Shown piece by piece: positions 1,352 to 62,800 of a stretch of 64,000 nt of DNA (its first letter is position 1; each line of letters begins with the position of its first letter). This stretch comes from Protoeuglena noctilucae. Lineage: Eukaryota. Position numbers and translations under genes: made by a program. The stretch is taken from assembly GCA_958009085.1 (NCBI GenBank), contig OY253682.1:682001-746000 (forward strand), written 5' to 3'. Under the pieces are notes generated by a model that was given only the letters and a program-made list of their open reading frames with translations, had not been told where the DNA came from and searched no databases.

Positions 1352-1379
1352 GCACGTTCGAGGGGGCGGGGAGCTGGAC

Positions 1380-1435
1380 GATGATGCGCAGTTCAGTAGC
1401 TGAGGGTGCCGAGGTCCATCAGGATCCTCGCCGCA
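1380..1435 (-). mobile_element. Short 5'-truncated 3'-end fragment of retroposon subfamily B with ATC tail
   Basis: Near-identical to the 3' end of element B (~1473-1528, tgcggcgaggatcctgatggacctc...catcatc on minus strand). Confidence 0.75.
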
Positions 1436-2129
1436 TGGGCGAGGGGTCCCCAGGCCCACACGGGGGCGAGATGATGATGTGCAGTTCAATAGCTGAGGGT
1501 GCTGAGGTCCATCAGGATCCTCGCCGCACGAGCTAGGCCCGCGCGACATGAGCGCCTTCCCCCGGGGCTGCCGCACCCCGGGGGTTCCATTATCGCAATG
1601 CATATGGCACTTGGCCCGCCCCCGCTAGGTCCCCCCACCCGAAGGCTATGGGGCCGCCGCCCCGGGCTCCAGCGCCCCTAGCCCCTTCGCCGAACCGCCG
1701 CCCCTGCCGGGACGAGCAACCGCAGGATGCCACGCGAGCGGGCCCCTGGGTACAAATACAACAACGAAGCAACGAAGCAGAGACAAGCCCCCATGCCGCG
1801 GCGCAGAGCACTTTCGCCCCATGCTAACAACGGACCCCACCCTGGTCCCACCGGCGCGGTCCCCGCGTCCCGCCGGTCGCTCTGCGTCCCCGTCACGAAA
1901 GCCTGCCGTCCCTCTGCACGCACACAGCGCGCAGCGCCCCGAAAGCCCCCCTAGACTCGGGGGCGCGGCTTGTCCCGACCAGCAGAACTCGAGCGCGTCG
2001 TGCTGCCGCCTGGCGCCTGCCAGGGGATATGCGACCGCATCAGCCGTCGCGAATGCACGCAAAGCACCCAACCGCACCCCCTCGCCGACTCGCCAGCCTC
2101 CGCCTTGGCCAAACCACCGCCGAACCACC

Positions 2130-2225
2130 GCACTGCGCGCCACCGCGCCATTTTTTGTGAACCGGCTCTTCATCACCGGCCATAAAGGCGCGGTGTCCAG
2201 AGGGCGCCACGAGGAGGCGGCCGGC
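2130..2225 (-). ncRNA. HDV-like ribozyme core (P3-L3-P1-P1.1-P4); 5' part displaced to 3237-3275
   Basis: Minus strand GCC-UCCUCGU-GGC-GCCCUCU-GG-A-CACCGCGCC...GGCGCGGUG-GC matches the HDV genomic layout GCC-UCCUCGCU-GGC-N7-GG; J4/2 is non-canonical. Confidence 0.6.
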
Positions 2226-2226
2226 G

Positions 2227-3236
2227 ATGATGATGAGCGATTCAACAGTCGAGGGGTGCTATGACTCTCAGAGCCACGCCTTGCGGCAGAAGTGCCGTCC
2301 CCCGGGGTAGCTGACACCCCGGGGTTTCCATCGTTGCAGTGCATATGGCACGTGGCCCGCCCCCGCTAGGTCGCCCCACCCTAAGGCAAAGGGGTCGCCC
2401 ACCCCGGGTTCTTGCACCCCTAGCCCCCTCGCTGCGCCCGAAGGCAGAATCGCCGTCCCAGAGTGGGACGATGCAGCCGCGGGGGCCCTCCGTGGAGACC
2501 CCCGGGCGTCTATTACAAAAGGTGAGGCCGAGGCTAATGACGATCTGTGTAGCTTATGTGCGGCCAATCATGACATCCCCCGCTCCCTACCCTCCTCCCC
2601 TCCTCCTCAGGCGGCCCGGCTGCTCGCCCACCCAGCGACGCTGGCCCGGACGCGAGGGCGGTGGGGGCGGTCCGAACGCAGACGGCGTTCATCGGGGGGC
2701 CCAGCGTTGCCCCTGGGCGCCCCGCTCGCCCACGCTGCGCCCCTGAGGGCCGGCTGCCTCTCATGTGGACCGCCCCAGACCGCCCCGCTCCGGGTGCGTG
2801 CGCCGGCACGACCCACTCGGCCGTGTGCCCAGAGACCCACGACGCGACCCCGCTCCTCGCTCCCGCACGTCGACCTTGGCCCTTGGCCCGTCCTCTCCCG
2901 CGCCCGTCGGCCCTGGCCCGTCCCTCAACTCCTCGCCCCCACACGCCCAGATGACCTTGGCCTGTCACGCTGGCGACCTAGGCCCATCACGCTGACGACC
3001 TAGGCCCATCACGCTGACGACCTTGGCCCATCACGCTGACGACCTTGGCCTATCACGCTGACGACCTTCAACCGACGCTGTGGCGACCCTGGCGCTTTAA
3101 CGCTGACGACCTTGGCCCACCTCCCGCTCACGCGCACCCGCGCGCCCTTATAACCGTGGCCTGCCTCGCGCCCCCGTCGCCCCCCCAAACACCCGACACC
3201 CCTGTGTCGCCCAGCCCATGCCCACCCACACCATTC
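2227..3236 (-). mobile_element. 5'-truncated LINE copy A' (~1.0 kb, 3' UTR only) with 11-bp TSD
   Basis: Near-identical to 3305-4355; flanked by GGCGGCCGGCG at 2216-2226 and 3237-3247; ATC tail. Confidence 0.9.
2950..3121. repeat. 22-bp minisatellite (acgctgacgaccttggcccatc), ~8 degenerate units, in copy A'
   Basis: Direct tandem units visible in the sequence, no spacers. Confidence 0.9.
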
Positions 3237-4027
3237 GGCGGCCGGCGGATCGCGCCATCGCGCATCCGAGTCCCTGATGATGATGATGATGATGATGATG
3301 AGTGATGATGAGCGATTCAACAGTCGAGGGGTGCTATGACTCTCAGAGCCACGCCTTGCGGCAGAAGTGCCGTCCCCCGGGGCAGCTGACACCCCGGGGT
3401 TTCCATCGTTGCAGTGCATATGGCACGTGGCCCGCCCCCGCTAGGTCGCCCCACCCTAAGGCAAAGGGGTCGCCCACCCCGGGTTCTTGCACCCCTAGCC
3501 CCCTCGCTGCGCCCGAAGGCAGAATCGCCGTCCCAGAGTGGGACGATGCAGCCGCGGGGGCCCTCCGTGGAGACCCCCGGGCGTCTATTACAAAAGGTGA
3601 GGCCGAGGCTAATGACGATCTGTGTAGCTTATGTGCGGCCAATCATGACATCCCCCGCTCCCTACCCTCTTCCCATCCTCCTCAGGCGGCCCGGCTGGCT
3701 CGCCCACCCGGCCACGCTGGCCCGGACGCGAGGGCGGTGGGGGCGGTCCGAACGCAGACGGCGTTCGTTGGGGGGCGCAGCGTTGCCCCTGGGCGCCCCG
3801 CTCGCCCACGCTGCGCCCCCGAGGGCCGGCTGCCTCTCATGTGGACCGCCCCAGACCGCCCCGCTCCGGGTGCGTGCGCCGGCACGACCCACTCGGCCGT
3901 GTGCCCAGAGACCCACGACGCGACCCCGCTCCTCGCTCCCGCACGTCGACCTTGGCCCTTGGCCCGTCCTCTCCCGCGCCCGTCGGCCTTGGCCCGTCCC
4001 TCAACTCCTCGCCCCCACACGCCCAGA

Positions 4028-4198
4028 TGACCTTGGCCCGTCACGCTGACGACCTTGGACTAATGCGCTGACGACCTTGGCCCATCGCGCTGACTACCTT
4101 GGCCCATCGCGCTGACGACCTTGGCATATCACGCTGACGACCTTTAACCGACGCTGTGGCGACCCTGGCCCTTTGACGCTGACGACCTTGGCCCACCT
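4028..4198. repeat. 22-bp minisatellite, ~8 units, in the LINE 3' UTR
   Basis: Same unit as 2950-3121. Confidence 0.9.
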
Positions 4199-6332
4199 CT
4201 CGCTCCGCGCACCCGCGCGCCCTGATACCCGTGGCCGCCCCCCCGCTTACGCGCCCCCGCGCACCCAGAAGACCTTGGCCTGCCTCGCGCCCCCGTCGCC
4301 CCCCAGACACCCGACACCCCTGTGTCGCCCAGCCCATGCCCACCCACAACACTCGTTGCCCCTTGTGTTACTCTCGCCGCCGCCGCTCGCTGTTGCCGCG
4401 CTGCCATCGCGCCCGCCCCCAGAAGCCCGCTACCCTGCTGTGTGCCGTGCGAGGGGTCGCCCCCGCCAACGCCACCATGCCGGGCGCCAGCACCCCACGC
4501 CGTCCGTTGCTCTCCTGCAGGGCCTCCTCAGCAGACTCCCGAAGACAGGCCCTCCGGCCCCGCTTGCGCTCCCACTATCCCCGCCTCGTTGCAGCCACGC
4601 CGCTCTCTGATCCTGTGGCGCCTGGTCCGTTCTGCGCCACTGCCGGGTGTTCCCACGACATCCCCGGCGTTCCACCCCACGGGCGCCACGTCTCTCGCCA
4701 CTGTCTGAGCCCATCAACCCGTTGCTGCCAGCTCTGCCCCGACGTTTGTCCCCCGTCGCACCCTTTGCCAGCCCCCCCCAGCGGGGCTGGTCTCGCACGT
4801 TGGCTGGAGCACAGGCGACGCGCTGGCGACCCCCACGCGGACCCACCCGACCAGCGCCAGAGCCCCTGAAGGGCCACGGGCGGGGAGGCCACGCGGCACG
4901 CGCAGTACCGTGGGTGTGTGGGGCGCGCCGCGACGGCGACGGAGCAGTCGCCCCACGGGTGAGCGCTGGCGGCTGTGGGACACCAAGGGCCTGCGAGGCA
5001 TGGCTGCAGAGGGCTAGGGGTGAGGCAAGGGTACGTGTGCTCGTCCGTCCAGGTCTGCGGTCAGGGAGAGGTGACGGTGTGCGTGACGGAGGATGAGTGC
5101 TGGTGTGGGTCCTGATCTGCGGCTGGCAAAGAGGGTTAGGGTGGTCGTGGGAGGATGCGAGGAGGTCTGTGCGTGATTGGGGGAGGTCAGGAGGTGCAGA
5201 TGCTGTGCTGGATCAGTGTGTGGTGCTTGGTGCATGGGGAGTGATGCGCTGAGGGAGGCGTGTGCTCACCTGGGCATTAGCTGTGAGGAGAGGGTGCTGA
5301 GCCTTACCTGTGCAGCTAGGGGGGGGGTGCGTGGGGCAGGAGGGCTTGCGAAAAGGGCGAGGCTGGTTGGGCGTGTGAGGTGAGGTGTGTGGGGGGGCGT
5401 GGTGCGTGAGAGAGGTGTGGCGTTGGGCTGGCAGGGGGAGGGGTGGGAGATGATGTGTGCTGAGCAGGAAGGTGGTTTATGTGGGGGTCCATGTGGAAGA
5501 GGAGAGGGGGTTGAGAGGTGAACGTGTGTATGTCAGTGGTGATGCACGGTGAGTGGGCAAGAGTGGTGCTGAGCGGCGAGATCGTGAGATGAGTGACGAG
5601 GGTGCGTGCAGAGAGTTAGAGGGCGTGTGTGGTCTGGTTGGAAGAGGCATCTACCTGTTAGCTGCGGGCATGGACGGGGCGGCGTGTCATGCGGGTGAGT
5701 GCTGCTGGGGCAGGGTGCGTGTGCAGTGTGATGTGGGGGGTGGAAAGTGTGCGTCATAGGAAGGCAGTGGGCTGGCTTAGGGACCTGGTGGGAGCAATGC
5801 AGTCGGGTGGATGTGGGAGTAATGCGGATTGGGGTGGGGTGGCATGGCCGGCTGCGGGGAAGGTGTAGAGCAGGCGTGTGGGTAAAGCTGTCGAGTGTGC
5901 GTCCGAGAACCTGCGAGGCATGCGAGAGATGGAGCGTGGGTGCGCAGAAGCCCTTGGTGTCCCGAGCGCCGGCACCCTCCCCGTGAGGCGCCCGCCCTTG
6001 CCGCCACAGCGCGCCCCACGCCCCTGCGGCTGCGCGCGCATCGCGTGGACCCCCCGCCCGCGGCCCCTCTCAGGCTCCGCCTCCGGCCAGGCAGCCCAGG
6101 GGGTCGCCGGTGGCGCCGCCGTGCGGTACTCCAGCCCATATCATCCTGGGTGCAGGGGAGCTTGTTTTAGCCGGCAGACGGACTCTTCCGTAGATGCTCA
6201 GTGTGGCCGTGGGCGCCCCAGTTGGCCGGGGCGCCGACGCCGGAACGAGCAGCCCGAAGGCCACCCGTCCGGCGCCGGCGCCCCGGCCCGAATGTCGTGG
6301 GGTGATGGCGTGCTGCGAATGAAGAGGCCCCC

Positions 6333-9300
6333 TCAGGGGAGTAGCGGCTCGACGGCTGCCCATGTGGGCGCAGTGTAGGTGAAGGTGGACCTCGCCGGGT
6401 CCCTTGGGTGTAAGAGGGCGTCGTCAGGGTGCGTGCAGCGCGCGAGGGCCCGCCCGCCCCGGTACGCCGCCAGAGCGACGAGCTCCTCGGCCATGATGCG
6501 CGTCATCTGCGCGAACAGCTGTGCCGGGGACGCGTCCGCCCCCGCGTCCTTCGTCAGCTGCTGCCGCCTGCGCCAGATGACCTGCACGGTCGCCCCCGCC
6601 ACGACCGCCCACGTGAGCGGCCCCAACCGCGCGCCCTCCGGCACGCGCAGCAGAAAGAGGGCCGACGGGCGGAGGGGCGCCCCCTGCGCCCCCCCCGCCC
6701 ACGCCACGATGCCCCTCGCCACGCGCCACACCTCCCGCGCGCGCGAGCACTCCCAGAACGCGTGGGCCGCGCTGTCCTTTCCCATGCACGCCTCCCCCTC
6801 CTCCGTCAGCAGCGGGCACTCGTCCCGCTCCGCCCAGTAAATCCTGTCCTGCGTAGCCCACCCGTCCGCCAGCGTCAGCCACAGCCGCTCGTGCAGGGCG
6901 TCCGACAGCGGCAGTCCGTTGAGCGCCACCAGCGTGCGCCTCAATCCCTCTCCCGTTAAGCCGTGTCCCTCCCCTAGCGCCGCCGCCCAGCCCTCCGCCT
7001 TGCGCTCCAGCCGCTGCCGGATCGCCGCCCTGTCACACGTCGTCCTCGCCGCCTCCCGCACCGTGTAGGAGGCCAGGTCCAGCGCCGCCTTGGAGGCGAC
7101 GCCGGGGTCCAGTGCCCAGCCCGGCGCCGTGGCCGTCATGGGCCGGTAGAAGTCGTTGGCCTCCCCGCCGCCCGGGGAGGCAAGTCGCAGGCGCTCCATG
7201 AAGCCCTCCGTGAGCGCCAGCCCGTCCCACGGGTCCCATTGCCCCTCCACGTCTGGCCGGGCATACTCGTTGCCCGGCCCAAGGAGGCCCAAGTCCAGCA
7301 TAAAAGCCCCAACCACCCAGCCGAGGCCCCTCCGATCCACCCCCGGCAGCCGATCATAGCCCAGCGCGAACGCCCAGGAGACCCACGTGTCCCATCGCCG
7401 CGCCGGGTCCCGCATGCAGAGATAATGCCCCACAGTTCCGAAACCCCGTTACGCCATCGCCCTCCCCACCGGGTGCAGGAGGAGGGGCCGGCCGCCCCCC
7501 GCCGGCCACCCAGCACCCCCCTCGTCGATCCCATCATCCGTATTGTCGTCGCCCGGCGCGCCGTCGTGCACCCACGCCCCACCAGCCCTCCCATGGACGC
7601 CCGTCGCGAAGCTGTGGAGCGATGAGGCCGAATCGTCTTGGTCCTGTCCCATGTCGTTGTGGAGGGGCCAGCCGCCCCCTCCATCGCCGGCGCCCCCAGG
7701 GCTGCCACCCCCGCGCCCGGGCCGCCCCCGCCGGCGGTACAGAGGACCCCCGGGGTGAGAAGCGACGCGCAGAGTAGATCCCCCTTTGTAGTCCCAGTGA
7801 CGGGGGTGAAGAAGTCCGTAGAAGAGGCGAAACGCGAGCCGTCCGTGCCCGCCAGGCCCCCGCCGCCCACGCGCGCCCCCCGCCAGCCATGCCCGTCCAT
7901 GGCCACGTTGGACAGGCGGTCCGCCAGGGCGTTCTGCTCCCGTGGCACGTGCTCCCAAGTGATGTCGAGGCCCGCCGCGAGCCTCTGCGCCTCGGTCCAC
8001 AACGGCACCAGCGCCGGGTGCCGCAGCGCCGAGCAGTCCCGCGGATCCATGGCGCGGATGACGAGGAGGGAATCCCCCCGGACGCGGAGCTTGGTGGCGC
8101 CGAGCTCGACTGTCGCGCGTAGCCCTCCCAAAAGCGCGGCGAACTCGGCCTGGTTGTTGGAGGCCCCGCGCACGGCGGGGCCCGCGAGCTCCAGCGTCTC
8201 CACCCCCTCGCCTTCCCCGGCCGCCAGCACCGCCCCCGCGCCAGCCGTGGACGTGTCGGAACCGTTGCCCCGCGAGCCCCCGTCGAAGTTGAGCGTCAGC
8301 CGGCCCTCCGCCGCCAGGTTGGTCCAGCGCTGCTGGGCGACCTCGTCCGTCGTGGGTGCCAGAGGTGGCGGCGCGTGCACGGGCCCGAGGGTCACGCGCA
8401 GGGACCCGAGGCCCTTGATGGCGTCGCAGAAGCTCTCGAGGGCCGGTAGCTTGCCCCGCAGGCGGCGGGACTCGATCAACTGCGCCACGTGGCAACCGTC
8501 CGTCTCGGGCAGTGAGAAGGGCAGCAGGCCCAGCCGGCCTGCCCCGAGCCCCTCCAGGCACGCCGTGAGGATGCCAGCGAGACCGCCCAACTGGCCGTGA
8601 GCGCCCACGCGCTTCGTGATGAGGGCGCGCGCCAGGTGCCGGAGCCGCCGCGCCGCCGTGTGCGCGTCCAGCGGGAGGGCGCCCAGCCCCCCCTCCTCCG
8701 GCGGGGCGGTCAGCATGATGCGGCCCACACGGAACCACACCTGCCCCGCCGATCGTGCGTTGAGGACATAGCGCTCCTGGACCCTCCGCAGGTCAGCGAC
8801 GCACGAGTGGTCGGCGGCGGGGGACATCTCCAGGTGGTACCCCGCGAGCGAGGTGATGTAGGCGTTGGCGACGCGCGCCCGACCCCGGATCGGCAGCCCC
8901 AGCGATGACGCCGCGTCCGCGCGGCGCAGGGCCTCCCCCAGCCACCCGGGCCACACCAGCGCCGCCTGCTCTCTCGTCTGCGCCCCCAGCAGCCGCACGC
9001 CCCCCGGCTCCACCCCCCACGGGCAGCCCTGCGCGGCGGCCTTGGCCTCCTGCCGCTTGTTGATGCGTCCCAGTCGGTAGAGCTTCGTCTTGGTCTGGCT
9101 CGCCTTCAGCCCGGACACACGGTGGAAGTCCCGCAGCACCTCGGCCAGCTCCCGCCACGGGTCGAGTTGGTTCCTGTCGCGCCCCACGAGCCGTTGGAGC
9201 AGCACGTTGAAGTCGTCGGCGAAGGCCAGCAGCGTCTCGGCCCTGCCGCCCGTCGTCCGGATGCCGAGCACGCGGTCGCACCGCGGGCCGCCCGGCAGCT

Positions 9301-11902
9301 GCACCGGCTCCTGGCCCCACGCCCGCAGCCTCTCTGCGAGGGGCTCCACCGCCAGCACGAAGATGAGCGGGCTCAGGGGGCATCCCTGCTTGACGCCCCG
9401 GTTGAGCGGGAACGGCTCCCCCGCCGCCCCGTTGAGGACCAGGCTCGCCCGGCTGTCGCTCTGCAGCGCCACCGCCGCCTTGACAAAACGCGGCGGGAGC
9501 CCTCCCCACGCCATCGCGTCCGCAGCCCACCCCCGGAAGGCCGTGTCGTACGCCTGTTCGAAGTCCACCAGCACCGCCCACGCCGACTGCCGCCGGATGC
9601 GCATGAGCTCGTCGAGCAGATGCAGCGAGTAGATGGCCGTCCCAATGTCACGCCCGGGGACGAAACCCAACTGGTCCTCGTGCACGAGCTGCGGCAGCAC
9701 CCGCAGCAGCCGCGCCGTCAGCACCTTGGCCGAAGACTTGTAGAGGACGGACAGTAGGGAGATGGGGCGGTACCGCCGCCAGTCCGTCCGCGAGCCGCCC
9801 TTGTGGATGAGCGTGATGGCGGCGTCCGCGAGGCGGCCGTCGTGCCCCTCGCCGCGGAGGAGCTTGTTGACGAAGTAGGCGACCACTTGCTCGACACCCG
9901 CCTCGGTCCCGGTGCCCTGGCACGCCTTGAGCAGCGCCGGGGAGATGCCGTCCGCGCCACCGCAGCTGTCGCCCCGTAGACCCTGTATCGCCTCCGCCGC
10001 CTCCGCCCGTGTCACGTCTGCCTCGAGAGCGGCCCTCGCCTCCTCCGACAGCGGCGACCGCGGGTTGCGCAGGAAGTTAGCGCGTGCCCTCTCATGTTGG
10101 CCGTCCGCGGAGGCAGGGGGCGCGGCAGGGGCGTAGAGCTGGGCCATGTTGGTCTGCAGGTCCCGCGCGAGGTCGTCCGTGACGCCCTCGACCCGCCGCC
10201 GCCACTTGAAATGGGCCGTGATCCGCCGACTCGGCACGGCCCCGAAGACCCGCAGAAAGTGCTTCGCCCGCTCGCTCTGCCACTGGACCTCCTGCTGCTC
10301 CAGCACCGTCAGCTGGCGCTGCAGGTCCAGCATCCGGTCCCAGTCCTCCGTCGCGTTCGTCCGCTGCGCCCTCCTCTCTGCCCGTCCCAGTTGCTTCTCC
10401 AGACGCCTCCGCTCCCCGTCCCGCCGCCGCCGCACCACCAGGTTGATCGCCTCCGCGCGGTGCCGGATGACCTTGGCCACTCGCACCGACGTGCACCCCG
10501 GCCCGTCCGCCGGTAAGTCCCTCCACACACCCCGCCGGAATCGCTCGGCCTCATGGCTCCCCGGCGCCCAGAGCGGCCGGACCTGCCGCAGCGGGTTGCG
10601 CCCCGCGGCCCTGTCTGCCCGCCGCCGTAGCGTCAGGACGAGCGCCTTGTGGTCCAGCCCGGGCACGAAGCGCGCCGCCAGCGTCGCCGGGTACCGGACC
10701 AGCAGGGCCGGGCGCGCCAGGCAGCGGTCAATGCGCGCCGCCGGCGTCGCTGCCCCCTCCGCTCGCGCCCCGAACCACGTGTAGGTGTCCCGGCGCAGCC
10801 CCAGCTGCACGTGCACGTCCGCCAGCCCCTGCGGCCCCGTCACGTTCTCCGTCCAGTGGATGACCTTGGCCAGGTCGTCGTGGTAGCGCCGGGACGCCCG
10901 CTCGAGCGGGTGACCCGACGTGCAGTTGAAGTCCCCAACGACGATCGTCTCCCTGTGCGCCTGGCGAGGCGGCATCAGATGCCGCAGCCGCGCAGTGAAG
11001 TCCCTGTGCGCTGCCGCCCCCCCGGACGCCGGCGCGTAGACCCCCACCACCGTGAAGCGCCGGTCGGCCCATGCGAGGTCGACTGCGCACGCCCGCCCCG
11101 CCAGCCCTTCCACGTCCGCCCCGCGCCGCTCCGGCGCGCCCGCCACCGACTCCCGATGTACCAGCACCCCCACGCCCCCCGGGCCGCCGTTCTCGTCCAG
11201 CGACCAGTGGCAGAAGTATTGGGGGAAGAATCCCGACGCCACCGCCTCCTGCCCCGCCCGCATCTTGACCTCCTGTAGAACCACCACGTCCGCCCGCAGC
11301 CTCCGCACCAGCCGCCGCACCGTCGCCCGCTTGCCCGCCATGGCCCCGCTCGACAGCCCCCGCACGTTGACGCTGACGACCCGCAGGTCGTCGGGCGCGA
11401 GGTCCCGCGCCGCGCTCCGCCTTCCCCGTCGCCGTGGCCCGCGCGCCGGCACCGCGGCCGGCGCCATCCGCGGCGGCGGCGGCGGCGGGGGCAGATTCCC
11501 CAACGGCGGCAGCGGGATGGGTGGGAGCGCGCCGATACGCGCTCCCGGCGCCTCTCCAACCTCCGACCCTTGCGCTCCCGAGCTTCGAACGCCTCCAGAC
11601 CGACTCTCCCCGCTCCCCCGGCCTCGCAGACCGCTCCCGCCCCCCCTTCTCCTCGCGCCGCCATGCTGCCCCAGCGCGCCCCCGCGCCGCGCACCCGCGC
11701 CCGCTCCGCCTCCTCCGCCCCCCGTAGACCCTCCTGCGATATCTTCTGAACCTTCTGCATGCAAAAGACCCGACGCCGGCCCCGCCCCGCCACCGCGCGG
11801 GCCCCGAACGCTCGAGCTAACAACACCATCTGATCGGGCCGCCCCCGTCGCCGCATCCCCCTCCCGCCGGCCTCCCGGCCCATCCATGCTACAGATCGTC
11901 AT
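6333..11902 (-). pseudogene. LINE polyprotein: AP endonuclease (~11390-10630), RT (~9960-9000), RNase HI (~8300-7895), CCHC zinc finger (~6820-6745); one frameshift and one in-frame TAA
   Basis: Motifs SVNVRGL, LQE, GVYAP, GDFN, RIDR, LDHKAL; RPISLL, QLGFVPGR, DFEQAYD, QGCPLSP, FADD (9223-9212); FDGGSRGN, NNQAEF, GDSLLV, HVPREQNALADRL; CPLL-x6-C-x7-H-x4-C. First ATG at 11902; ORFs 8738-7449 and 7433-6333 share a frame, separated by TAA 7449-7451. Confidence 0.92.
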
Positions 11903-12176
11903 TTTACCGCACGCTGCCAAGCGCGCGGCGCCTCGCAAGCCTCCCTCGGCTCCGGGGCGCGGCTCGTCCCGAGCCAACGAGACCGAGCGGCTGTGCCTTC
12001 ACCTGGCGCCTGCCAGGGGTTTTGCGAACTCGCCTCCTGCCTAGAGAGTCGCGATGCACATGACCGTTCCGCCGCACCCCTCGCCACCCTCCCGCTCGCG
12101 CTACGCCGACGGCCTACCTGATGATGATGAGCGATGATGATCCCGCGCGCCTCACGACCTCACGATGAAGTACATC

Positions 12177-12216
12177 GATGATGATGAGCGATTCAACAGT
12201 CGAGGGGTGCTATGAC
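12177..12216 (-). mobile_element. 40-bp terminal fragment of the LINE (3' end plus ATC tail)
   Basis: Identical to 2226-2265; a still shorter tail-only piece (atcgctcatcatcatc) lies at 12120-12140. Confidence 0.85.
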
Positions 12217-12248
12217 GTCCGTGTCGTAGCCTCTCCGGGCCGGGCAGC

Positions 12249-12253
12249 AAAAA
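12249..12253 (-). terminator. RNA polymerase III oligo-T terminator
   Basis: TTTTT 2 nt after the tRNA discriminator. Confidence 0.8.
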
Positions 12254-12255
12254 GC

Positions 12256-12376
12256 TTCCCCAGCCGGGACTCGAACCCGGGCCACCAGGGCTTTTCGCCG
12301 GCGCTTCAACCGGAGGTATCGAACACGCGTCGGCATGATTGAAAACCTGGGATCCTAACCTCTGGACCACTGGGGA
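12256..12376 (-). tRNA. tRNA-Glu(TTC) with 49-nt canonical 37/38 intron (12339-12291)
   Basis: Acceptor stem TCCCCAG/CTGGGGA, D arm GTCC/GGAT, anticodon stem CCAGG/CCTGG with TTC, T arm CCGGG-TTCGAGT-CCCGG. Confidence 0.96.
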
Positions 12377-59800: not shown

Positions 59801-62800
59801 CGAGAAGTGGGACGTGATCACGCGGAAGGGCGGCGACGCCGCCGTGGCGGGGGCGGTGCGGCTGCTGATCATCGACGAGGTGCACCTCCTCAACGACGAC
59901 CGGGGGAGCGTCATCGAGGTGAATGGCTACATCTGTAATGGCGGGGAATGTGCTGACTGGAGACTGCTTCCTTTGTACCAGCGCCGACGTGCCGCGTTTC
60001 TTGTCGACCGCACGACCACCCCTCTGCGCCCCTCCTTTCCCGCAGACGCTGGTGGCCCGCACGCAGCGGCAGGTCGAGGCCACACAGTCCATGATCCGCA
60101 TTGTGGGCCTCTCCGCCACCCTCCCCAACTACCGCGACGTGGCGGCCTTCCTCTCCGTCAACCTCAGCACCGGCCTCTTCTTCTTTGACGCCTCGTACCG
60201 CCCCGTGCCCCTCGAGACGCAGTTCATTGGCGTCTCGGAGCCATCACTGGTCGGCCGCACGCGCGTGATGAACCAGGTTTGCTGGGACAAGGTCGCCGAG
60301 AGCCTCAGGGGAGGGTACCAAGCCATGGTGTTCGTGCACTCGCGCAAAGAGACGGGTGAGGGGCAGTTGGTTGCCATGACACAGAGTCGCAACATCCATT
60401 TATGTCCCGGTCTCTCCACCCGCCCCATCACTTACTCTGCACACACACCAATCTGAACACACACCCACTTGCCCTGTCGCAGGCAAGACGGCGCGCACGC
60501 TGGCGGACCTGGCCGCGGCGTCGGGGTCCTCCGAGCTCCTCCTGGCCCCCTCGCATGACGAGCAGTACGGCATCTGGAAGCGCGAGGTGTCCCGCTCCCG
60601 CAACCGCGAGCTCCAGGAGCTCTTCGACCGGGGCGTGGCCATCCACCACGCGGGCATGCTGCGGTCGGACCGGAACCTGGTCGAGCGCCTCTTCTCGCGG
60701 GGGGTGGTGCGCGTGCTGTGCTGCACGGCCACGCTGGCCTGGGGGGTCAACCTGCCGGCGCACACGGTGGTCATCAAGGGGACGCAGATGTACGACCCCC
60801 AGCAGGGGTGCTTCACGGAGGTGGGCATGCTCGACGTGCAGCAGATCTTCGGGCGCGCGGGCCGCCCCCAGTACAACATCCCCGGCGTGGGCATCATCAT
60901 CACCACGCACGACAAGCTGGCGCGTTACCTGGGCATGCTCACCCACAGCGCGCCCATCGAGTCGCACTTCGAGAAGGGCCTCGTCGACAACCTCAACGCC
61001 GAGGTGGTGCTGGGCACGGTGACCAACGTGCGGGAGGCGTGCACGTGGCTCAGCTACACCTACATGCACACGCGCATGACCAAGAACCCCCTGGCCTACG
61101 GCGTCACGTGGGAGGAGCTGCAGTCGGACCCGGGACTGGAGCTGCACCGCCGCCGCATGGTGGAGCGCGCGGCCAAGGAGCTTGACCGCAGCCGCATGGT
61201 GCGGTTCGACGAGCGCAGCGGCAACCTTTACGTCACGGAGCTGGGGCGCGTGGCCAGCCACTACTACGTACGGCACAAGACGGTCGTCGAGTTCAACGAG
61301 AGGCTGAGGCCTCAGATGTCCGAGGCGGAGGTTTTGGACCTCATTGCCTCATCCGCAGAGTTCGAGCAGATGAACGTCAGGCGAGGGGCTTGGGCGCGGG
61401 GGTGTGACACACGGCGGGGACTGCGCGTGAATGGCGATGCTCAGAGAGTGACTGCGCAACATTGCTGACAATGTGACTGCGTGTGTCCATCTGCGCCCTG
61501 CAGGGAGGACGAGATTGTGGAGTTGGAGCGGCTGGCACGCCGCGAGTGCCCCGTGGAGCTCAGGCACGGCGTCGACAGCAAGCAGGGCAAGGCCAACGCA
61601 CTGCTGCAGGTGCGGGAAGGCTTGAGGGACGACCCTGTGCCACTCGTTCCCTCTGTTCTGTCCCTGACTGCCGCACCACCAGCGTCACCCCTGCCCTCCC
61701 AAGCACCGACCCTCACTCCCACCCCCGCAGTCCTTCGTGTCCCGCGCCCGCATCGACACCTTCTCCCTCGTCGCCGACATGAACTACGTGGCCCAGAACG
61801 CCCCCCGCATCGCCCGCGCCCTGCTCGAGATCGCCATCAAGCGCGGGTGGCCGTCCCTGGTCGACGTCCTGTTGGCGGTCTGCAAGAGCCTTGAGCAGCA
61901 GTGCTGGCCCACGCAGCACCCGCTCCGGCAGTTCCCCCACGCCCTCAACCCCCTCCTCCTGCACAAGCTGGAGGACCACGGCCTGACCCTGGAGCGGCTG
62001 TGGGACATGGATGCAACCACCATCGAGCGCATCGCCAGGCACCCACGCTGCGGCCGCCCGGTGCGCGACGTCGTCGACGGCTTCCCCGACCTCTCCCTCG
62101 ACTGCGACGTCCAGCCCATCACGCGGTCAGTGCTCCGTGTTGTGCTGCGCATCACGCCCGAGGTGAGAGAGAAAGACGAAACAAGAGTGTCGAGGCATAT
62201 TCAGGCCTCGTGTCAGTCAATCTGCATTGGCGCTCATACCACTGCCAGCGCCCGCTGCTCAGTGTGTGCCCTAGCCACTTGGGTGGTCATCTGGGCGGTT
62301 GTCGGCACCGCCCCTCCCCAAACTCTTGCAGTTCAAGTGGCGTGACGGCATGCACGGCGGCGCCACCCGCTGGCACATCTGGGTGGAGGACGCGGAGAAC
62401 GAGCACATCTACCACCACGAGACCTGGGCGCTGACCAAGAAGATGCACCGGGAGGGCACGCAGCCGGTGTCCTTCACCATCCCCGTCTTCGAGCCCCTGC
62501 CGCCCCAGTACTTCGTCCGCGTGGCCAGCGACACGTGGCTGCACGCGGAGGCGGTCCACGAGATGCGATTTGACACCCTGGTGCTCCCGGACCGGGCCCC
62601 CGCCCATACGGCTCTTCTGGACCTGGACCCTCTGCCACGCACGGCCCTCAGAGATCCCTCTTTCGAGGCCCTCTACCGCTTCTCCCACTTCAACCCAATC
62701 CAGACCCAGGCCTTCCACGCCCTGTACCACTCGGACGACAGCGTGCTGATGGGCGCACCCACGGGGTCGGGGAAGACGGTCATGGCCGAGCTAGCCATGC

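Follow-up and report, generated by a model that had tools for sequence, protein, structure and literature searches.

The 64-kb stretch of contig OY253682.1 analysed here (in what follows, the window) is GC-rich (0.60-0.74) eukaryotic DNA crowded with open reading frames (ORFs), and the question that it raises is why its sole cluster of repeats adjoins its sole tRNA gene. The cluster lies behind a tRNA-Glu gene and is a stack of retroposons, composed of a long interspersed nuclear element (LINE) and its shorter relatives; all five pieces have the orientation of the tRNA gene (minus strand), and every element ends in an (ATC)n tail. This is the kind of position at which TRE3 inserts, namely 40-150 bp downstream of tRNA genes and in the same orientation, as stated in passages of two published accounts (PMC5911963; PMC5006619). 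We consider it probable on balance, on two loci and short of proof, that a TRE3-like preference for the DNA downstream of tRNA genes seeds such stacks, and that events linked to the tails of the elements enlarge them.

Read on the minus strand, the order of the features is tRNA, 39 nt, a first tail fragment (F1), 24 nt, the LINE, one base, a second element (B) that is split by a truncated LINE copy (A'), 34 nt, a second tail fragment (F3), 28 nt and the stop codon of a helicase gene. Depth and junctions were read from the contigs of four marine metagenome runs (X2, X3 and X9 among them) that contain DNA of the window's organism, the depth of unique flanks being ~15 in X2 and ~200 in X9. The 39 nt between the 3' end of the tRNA and the first element (12217-12255) are native; they have no other copy in the window and lie on a contig of unique depth (12187-13000). 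F1 (12177-12216, minus) is a 40-nt 3'-terminal fragment of the LINE, ends in (ATC)3 and is 100% identical to 2225-2265 and 3303-3340. The next 24 nt (12153-12176), either native spacer or filler, have no other copy in the window, and a multi-copy contig of the LINE diverges exactly at 12152/12153. Behind them stand the L1-like LINE (3276-12152, minus; 8.9 kb) and the 5' end of B (3237-3274, minus), which is cut off from the B body by A' (2227-3236, minus), a 5'-truncated, 1.0-kb copy of the LINE 3' end that matches 3303-4355. The B body with its tail (1470-2226, minus; tail ...CTATTGAACTGCAC(ATC)3) is followed by 34 nt (1436-1469), again native spacer or filler with no other copy in the window and on a contig of unique depth (1000-1499), and by F3 (1380-1435, minus), a 56-nt tail fragment of the B type that ends ...CTACTGAACTGCGCATCATC and is 94.6% identical to the B tail at 1473-1528.

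The tail motif TTGAATCGCTCATCATC, allowing up to three mismatches, has four matches in the window (chance expectation 0.06), all on the minus strand and located from 1473 to 12196. For CATCATCATC, 10 of the 11 matches fall within 1470-12186 on the minus strand, the remaining one being at 60892, and blastn of 1352-12255 against the window found no copy in the other 51 kb. An earlier note on this DNA had described a retroposon stack just behind the tRNA-Glu gene and in the same orientation, with no such tails in the other ~51 kb; both statements are borne out by Rfam, the tail motif and blastn, and the distance is 39 nt. It had also stated that the target sequences differ, and indeed the primer-side ends of the five 3' junctions in the window have no common motif. 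Its estimate of about six insertions, all on the tRNA strand, was correct as to the strand and too high as to the count, which is 3-5 independent events. The native DNA from the tRNA to the helicase stop amounts to ~125-137 nt, and the tRNA is followed by native insertion points at about +39, +63 and +97, provided that the 24-nt and 34-nt spacers are native.

The tRNA gene (12256-12376, minus) was recognized by Rfam (RF00005, 50.6 bits, model 1-71) and is the only match at gathering level in the window. Its anticodon loop UUUUC, together with 51 inserted bases in the Rfam alignment, identifies it as tRNA-Glu(UUC) with an intron of ~49 nt at position 37/38, and a TTTTT terminator run is located 3 nt past its 3' end. 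ARAGORN reported no tRNA across the whole window, the intron-bearing tRNA-Glu included; intron-blind callers would therefore hide any tRNA link in this genome. In runs X2 and X3, two further contigs follow the window as far as 12280 (within the 3' half of the tRNA) before diverging, and probably represent other tRNA genes that have the T arm and acceptor in common with it.

The LINE contains a single long ORF, starting with an ATG at 11902, whose protein comprises in order a Gly/Arg-rich N-terminus, an apurinic/apyrimidinic (AP) endonuclease, a reverse transcriptase, an RNase H and a C-terminal Cys/His motif. Pfam places Exo_endo_phos at 209-439 and RVT_1 at 740-975 of the window ORF (P0001), and also matches RVT_3/RNase_H; the endonuclease precedes the reverse transcriptase within a single polyprotein both in P0001 and in P0107, an intact ORF of 1711 aa from another locus that includes the C-terminal Cys/His motif. 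In the window, the C-terminal part of the protein (6333-7448, minus), in which the motif C-x10-C-x7-H-x4-C was read by eye and for which Pfam gave no match, lies in another frame, while in P0107 it is contiguous with the upstream ORF. Compared with P0107, the window LINE shows a frame change at ~7664 and an in-frame stop at 7449-7451, and this copy is thus disabled; an extra G behind 7663 is present in about half of the metagenome contig depth. The best solved relative of the protein is human L1 ORF2p (E 4e-29), the values for R2 being 1e-7 to 9e-10. On its domains and best matches, the LINE can be assigned to the L1 clade of the retrotransposons without long terminal repeats. The best protein identity beyond its own species is ~31% at most, and copies from the same species (P0003, P0004) are 98-99% identical.

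Some further features of the LINE may be recorded here. Its long 3' region contains 22-bp tandem repeats (7.5 copies) at 2953-3119 and 4029-4195, in an area that varies among copies by indels and deletion variants (2495/3570 joined to 4338, 12210/2259 joined to 3768), as well as an inverted repeat of ~135 nt with 75% identity (4860-4995 / 5943-6077). A deletion variant in which 291 nt of the ORF (9973-10265) are swapped for 18 other bases appears as a contig in three of the four runs. A loose end at 3399 in X3 represents two copies truncated near that point; their upstream sense flank has three T runs (7, 7 and 5), which are odd in 70% GC DNA and could be either a Pol III (RNA polymerase III) terminator zone or antisense poly(A).

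The tail of the LINE is (ATC)8 after CTGTTGAATCGCTCATCATCAC. As regards its 5' end, the multi-copy contig (depth 53 versus 15 for unique DNA in X2; found also in X9) covers 11702-12152 and continues with 51 bases unlike the window, and TCGCTCATCATCATC-AGG also precedes the LINE 5' end at a second locus (P0126). Taken together, these two observations make 12117-12152, including 12120-12140, a 5' leader shared by LINE copies, and within this leader lies a tag that comes from the 3' end of the element itself. The earlier note had ended the LINE at 12116 and counted 12120-12140 as a separate insertion, and both points had to be abandoned. It had also seen duplications flanking two of the insertions, and only one of these has survived. 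Given the shared leader, the 14-bp 'duplication' CCTGATGATGATGA of the LINE consists of leader, tail repeat and one chance base, and as a target duplication it is doubtful. The 11-bp duplication GGCGGCCGGCG of A' (2216-2226 / 3237-3247) is instead proven, because empty sites are seen in other B copies: contigs at B depth run from 2226 directly into the sequence of 3248-3273 in all four runs. A' is 92.5% identical to the LINE 3' end at 3303-4355 overall, 100% over the first 300 nt, and truncated at the equivalent of 4355.

Element B extends to about 3274, as shown by B contigs and antisense proteins, in agreement with the end near 3275 proposed before. It is 0.8 kb long. Its 5' part resembles the 5' untranslated region (UTR) of the LINE (local alignment with 11900-12092; 79% for 1926-2034 against 11920-12027) and its 3' part the LINE 3' end (83% for 1543-1690 against 3358-3507). 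Three copies of B have a common 5' end, translated as ...GGSRHRASES, and then differing upstream flanks, and B has no real coding capacity, only stray ORFs. With its LINE-like 3' end and tail, its multiple copies and its lack of coding capacity, B is a non-autonomous relative of the LINE. A tRNA-derived short interspersed nuclear element (SINE) was considered as well and rejected, since the three copies have identical 5' ends and different upstream flanks. In B and in the spacers, Rfam at lax thresholds gave sub-threshold matches only and no tRNA-like or SINE-like RNA. The 3' ends of the LINE (A) and of B (3303-3330, 1473-1500 and 1383-1410) share CTRYTGAA between 3-bp stem arms that differ by family yet stay paired (CGA/TCG versus CAG/CTG), and this paired element may be a recognition hairpin preceding the (ATC)n tail. 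Folded as a consensus, the 3' ends of A, B and F3 yield no more than a 3-bp hairpin, in which two pairs covary in three sequences, too thin a basis for a claim.

Depth relative to unique DNA in the four runs was 3-6x for the LINE 5' half, 6-20x for the LINE 3' part and 5-11x for B; LINE and B are a small, young, low-copy family. The family carries the marks of target-primed reverse transcription, i.e. 5' truncation, a 3' tail, a target duplication and a depth that rises from 5' to 3'.

Is the tRNA gene in the window a coincidence? Upstream flanks at other loci were read from stray ORFs that run antisense to the elements in public protein sets. A search with the B antisense ORF returned five proteins, one of which, P0112, leaves the 5' end of a full-length B in the antisense direction, continues for 34 codons (100 nt) and then reads ...PALQRIRTPDHAVKSRALWPTELEGR.... 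In tblastn, this last stretch fell on annotated tRNA genes in 22 of 25 phage records among the matches listed, albeit with weak E-values (0.2-8), and in the one record checked it was antisense to tRNA-Lys(ctt); back-translation puts VKS across the anticodon loop, with YTT. Since P0112 is antisense both to B and to the tRNA, the tRNA lies upstream of B and in the same orientation. The data support a second locus at which a full-length B stands 100 nt downstream of a tRNA-Lys-like gene. At the two tRNA-linked loci, the distance is therefore 39 nt (window) and 100 nt (P0112), with the same orientation at both. On the basis of one tRNA per 64 kb, and counting only tRNAs in the same orientation and within 150 nt, the chance of such a position is ~0.1-0.25% per locus, so that even one match in two or three independent flanks would be unlikely by chance. 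Other searches added no tRNA-linked locus: the B antisense ORF against representative proteins found only P0112 and P0113; P0112 against the metagenome contig collection gave no confirmed match; the tail pattern had no match in the metagenome and genome contig collections, nor did the tail and B 5' patterns in the viral contig collection; and a search with the A-tail antisense ORF gave downstream flanks and no additional upstream flank.

A position downstream of tRNA genes could also arise by survivorship. Insertion would then be unaimed, and in a compact genome copies would persist only in harmless spots, such as dead viral DNA or the short gap that separates a tRNA from the end of a convergent gene. 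The ORF-packed window, with a native gap of only ~130 nt, is in keeping with this, and so is one copy in a P-loop ATPase ORF, maybe of a dead integrated element. However, survivorship gives no reason why both loci have the orientation of the tRNA, why the distances are 39 and 100 nt, or why one gap of the many present in 64 kb was entered repeatedly, and copies as young as these (98-100% identity) have left selection little time to sort them. We regard this explanation as very unlikely.

There are, on the other hand, several observations that weigh against a tRNA preference, in addition to the weak E-values of the phage matches. Just two loci are linked to a tRNA, and the window was chosen for its tRNA. 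Three other loci have a visible native upstream flank: one has a tRNA (P0112), one has none, as no tRNA motif was seen in the 96-nt flank of P0114, and one (P0111/P0113) has a readable flank of only 39 nt and is uninformative. A cloverleaf score on degenerate back-translations, tried as a test of P0112, gave 30 out of 30; shuffled peptides reached 28 and unrelated ORFs 29-30, and the score was dropped. No empty allele of the stack, that is, no joint across the whole of it, was seen in the contigs of the four runs, which is not evidence of absence; for this reason the native origin of the 24-nt and 34-nt spacers is unproven. A LINE tail adjoins the P-loop ATPase ORF (GIGCGKT) at about codon 121 (P0129/P0131). 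If that ORF was intact, there was no tRNA within 150 nt of the native site, and the copy argues against a strict rule of tRNA association. The ATPase piece has weak sub-threshold Pfam matches, Pox_A32 among them, and may be part of an integrated virus-like element. At least eight tail-to-5'-end junctions join family members at other loci, and two joints elsewhere bring together tails on opposite strands. Direct abutment of a tail and a 5' end, finally, is not what independent insertions at variable distance predict.

These junctions demonstrate that the family certainly stacks on itself. In some of them, a LINE tail directly abuts a LINE truncated at 10958, a B tail is followed after 11 nt by a LINE truncated at 10418, or a LINE tail is followed by a 20-nt B tail. 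The locus of P0114 has a 117-nt A fragment, ~12 nt, a 40-nt A fragment, ~6 nt and a truncated B; that of P0134 an A tail and then the interior of B; that of P0126 an A tail, a 21-nt tail and a full LINE; and that of P0137 an A tail, 42 nt and a 165-nt A fragment. Insertion primed at existing tails and jumps of the reverse transcriptase between RNAs are both known for LINEs, and either would fit the 40-nt LINE tail fragment, which is cut at the identical base at two loci (F1 in the window, and P0114).

It is conceivable that stacking is all there is, with elements inserting into their own tails (the primer strand ending in GAT repeats), or the reverse transcriptase chaining RNAs, and the tRNA a bystander next to a chance seed. 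The element-next-to-element junctions at other loci (contigs; P0114, P0134, P0126, P0137) speak for it, as does the single base between the LINE tail and the B 5' end, and the 20-40 nt fragments with their shared 40-nt cut point fit abortive or jumping reverse transcription. It does not account for P0112, in which the 5' end of a full-length B borders on non-repeat DNA and has a tRNA 100 nt off in the same orientation, nor for A', which entered GGCGGCCGGCG^GATCGC, a target that is not a tail; the A', P0112 and P0129 copies all sit in non-repeat DNA. Moreover, the five 3' junctions of the window lack a common primer-side motif, and F1, B and F3 are set apart by spacers of 24 and 34 nt with no match elsewhere in the window. 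Stacking alone thus leaves unexplained the tRNA at 39 and 100 nt, in the same orientation, at both loci with a far enough flank, and likewise the unrelated targets of A' and of the five 3' junctions. We judge it possible and yet rather unlikely as the whole explanation. The TRE3-like targeting proposed in the earlier note has, in sum, gained a second locus (P0112) and has been qualified by the finding that most junctions at other loci are between elements, in line with the competing account that the note itself had put forward, and that one copy stands at an ATPase ORF.

Both the LINE and B spread by target-primed reverse transcription, as is evident from the 5' truncations, the proven 11-bp duplication and the intact copies at other loci, and the ends of both are formed by a short hairpin-like motif and (ATC)n. 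Under the explanation we favour, in which a preference for tRNA genes and events at the tails act together, the first insertions would be seeded downstream of tRNA genes, as with TRE3, and targeting would likely work through an element protein that touches the Pol III transcription complex. The stack could then grow by repeated insertions in the same zone, by priming at existing (ATC)n tails, or by the reverse transcriptase jumping, once it has reached the end of an RNA, onto the 3' end of a different one; the second and third routes would leave elements piled up head to tail and separated by very short tail fragments.

The neighbouring gene on the far side of the stack encodes a DEAD-box helicase, of which the last exon and stop (770-1351, plus; Helicase_C 3e-11) are convergent with the tRNA; the DEAD motif was read as VLDEADRM at 112-135. 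A Pfam search of 11 long ORFs of the window also recognized Urb1-like and Brr2-like ORFs and gave no placement of the organism.

Aiming at tRNA genes is a textbook survival route for retroelements in compact genomes. The window LINE resembles Dictyostelium TRE3 in being an AP-endonuclease-type LINE in a gene-dense genome, with several elements piled at one tRNA. It differs in structure, since the two ORFs, the -1 frameshift and the oligo(A) tail of TRE3 contrast with the single ORF, the RNase H and the (ATC)n tail of the window LINE; the features by which the TRE clade is defined (two ORFs with a -1 frameshift, an oligo(A) tail and, following the reverse transcriptase, a zinc finger) do not describe it. 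It differs also in the extent of the association, as nearly all TRE3 copies are linked to tRNAs, compared with two loci here. There are no TRE proteins among the named protein matches to the LINE, and with a best identity outside the species of ~31%, there is no indication that it descends from the TRE clade. Insertion downstream of tRNA genes is, in the wording of a passage of a 2018 review, 'only found in dictyostelid genomes' (PMC5911963). Our full-text literature search, of limited coverage, found no algal LINE tied to tRNA genes. A tRNA preference here, if true, would be a convergent variant of a known strategy, carried by an unrelated LINE in a GC-rich marine eukaryote, and would open up a second system, itself possessing intact copies, for the study of how DNA behind Pol III genes is marked.

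In its L1-clade domain order, with AP-endonuclease and reverse transcriptase, the LINE is like Zepp and the L1 elements of green algae and plants. Zepp is known for nested clusters; it has a poly(A) tail, whereas that of the window LINE is (ATC)n. Microsatellite tails are frequent among green-algal L1 families (8 of the 15 listed in PMC3747384, table 3), and (ATC)n is absent from the tails of that table. In the literature searched, none of these algal and plant elements is linked to tRNA genes.

The stacking itself has other parallels. Chimeric L1 retrocopies (U6-L1) are made by template switching, with short 3' fragments joined to 5' ends, and the short 3' fragments fused to 5' ends in the present family are alike; these fragments and the tagged 5' leader bear on template switching by LINE reverse transcriptases. 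HeT-A and TART of Drosophila form head-to-tail arrays, and HeT-A has 5' 'tags' from the element's 3' end, which is matched here by the head-to-tail arrays and by the 5' leader with a piece of the element 3' end. Carried to its conclusion, this likeness would describe an L1-type LINE of a marine alga-like eukaryote that independently homes 40-100 nt downstream of tRNA genes and also depends on head-to-tail arrays, its 5' tag arising as if transcription started in the long 3' UTR of the upstream neighbour, which for HeT-A is called 'promoting in tandem'; in our analysis such a system appears unlikely. Unlike HeT-A and TART, which are located at chromosome ends, the arrays described here are internal and stand behind tRNA genes.

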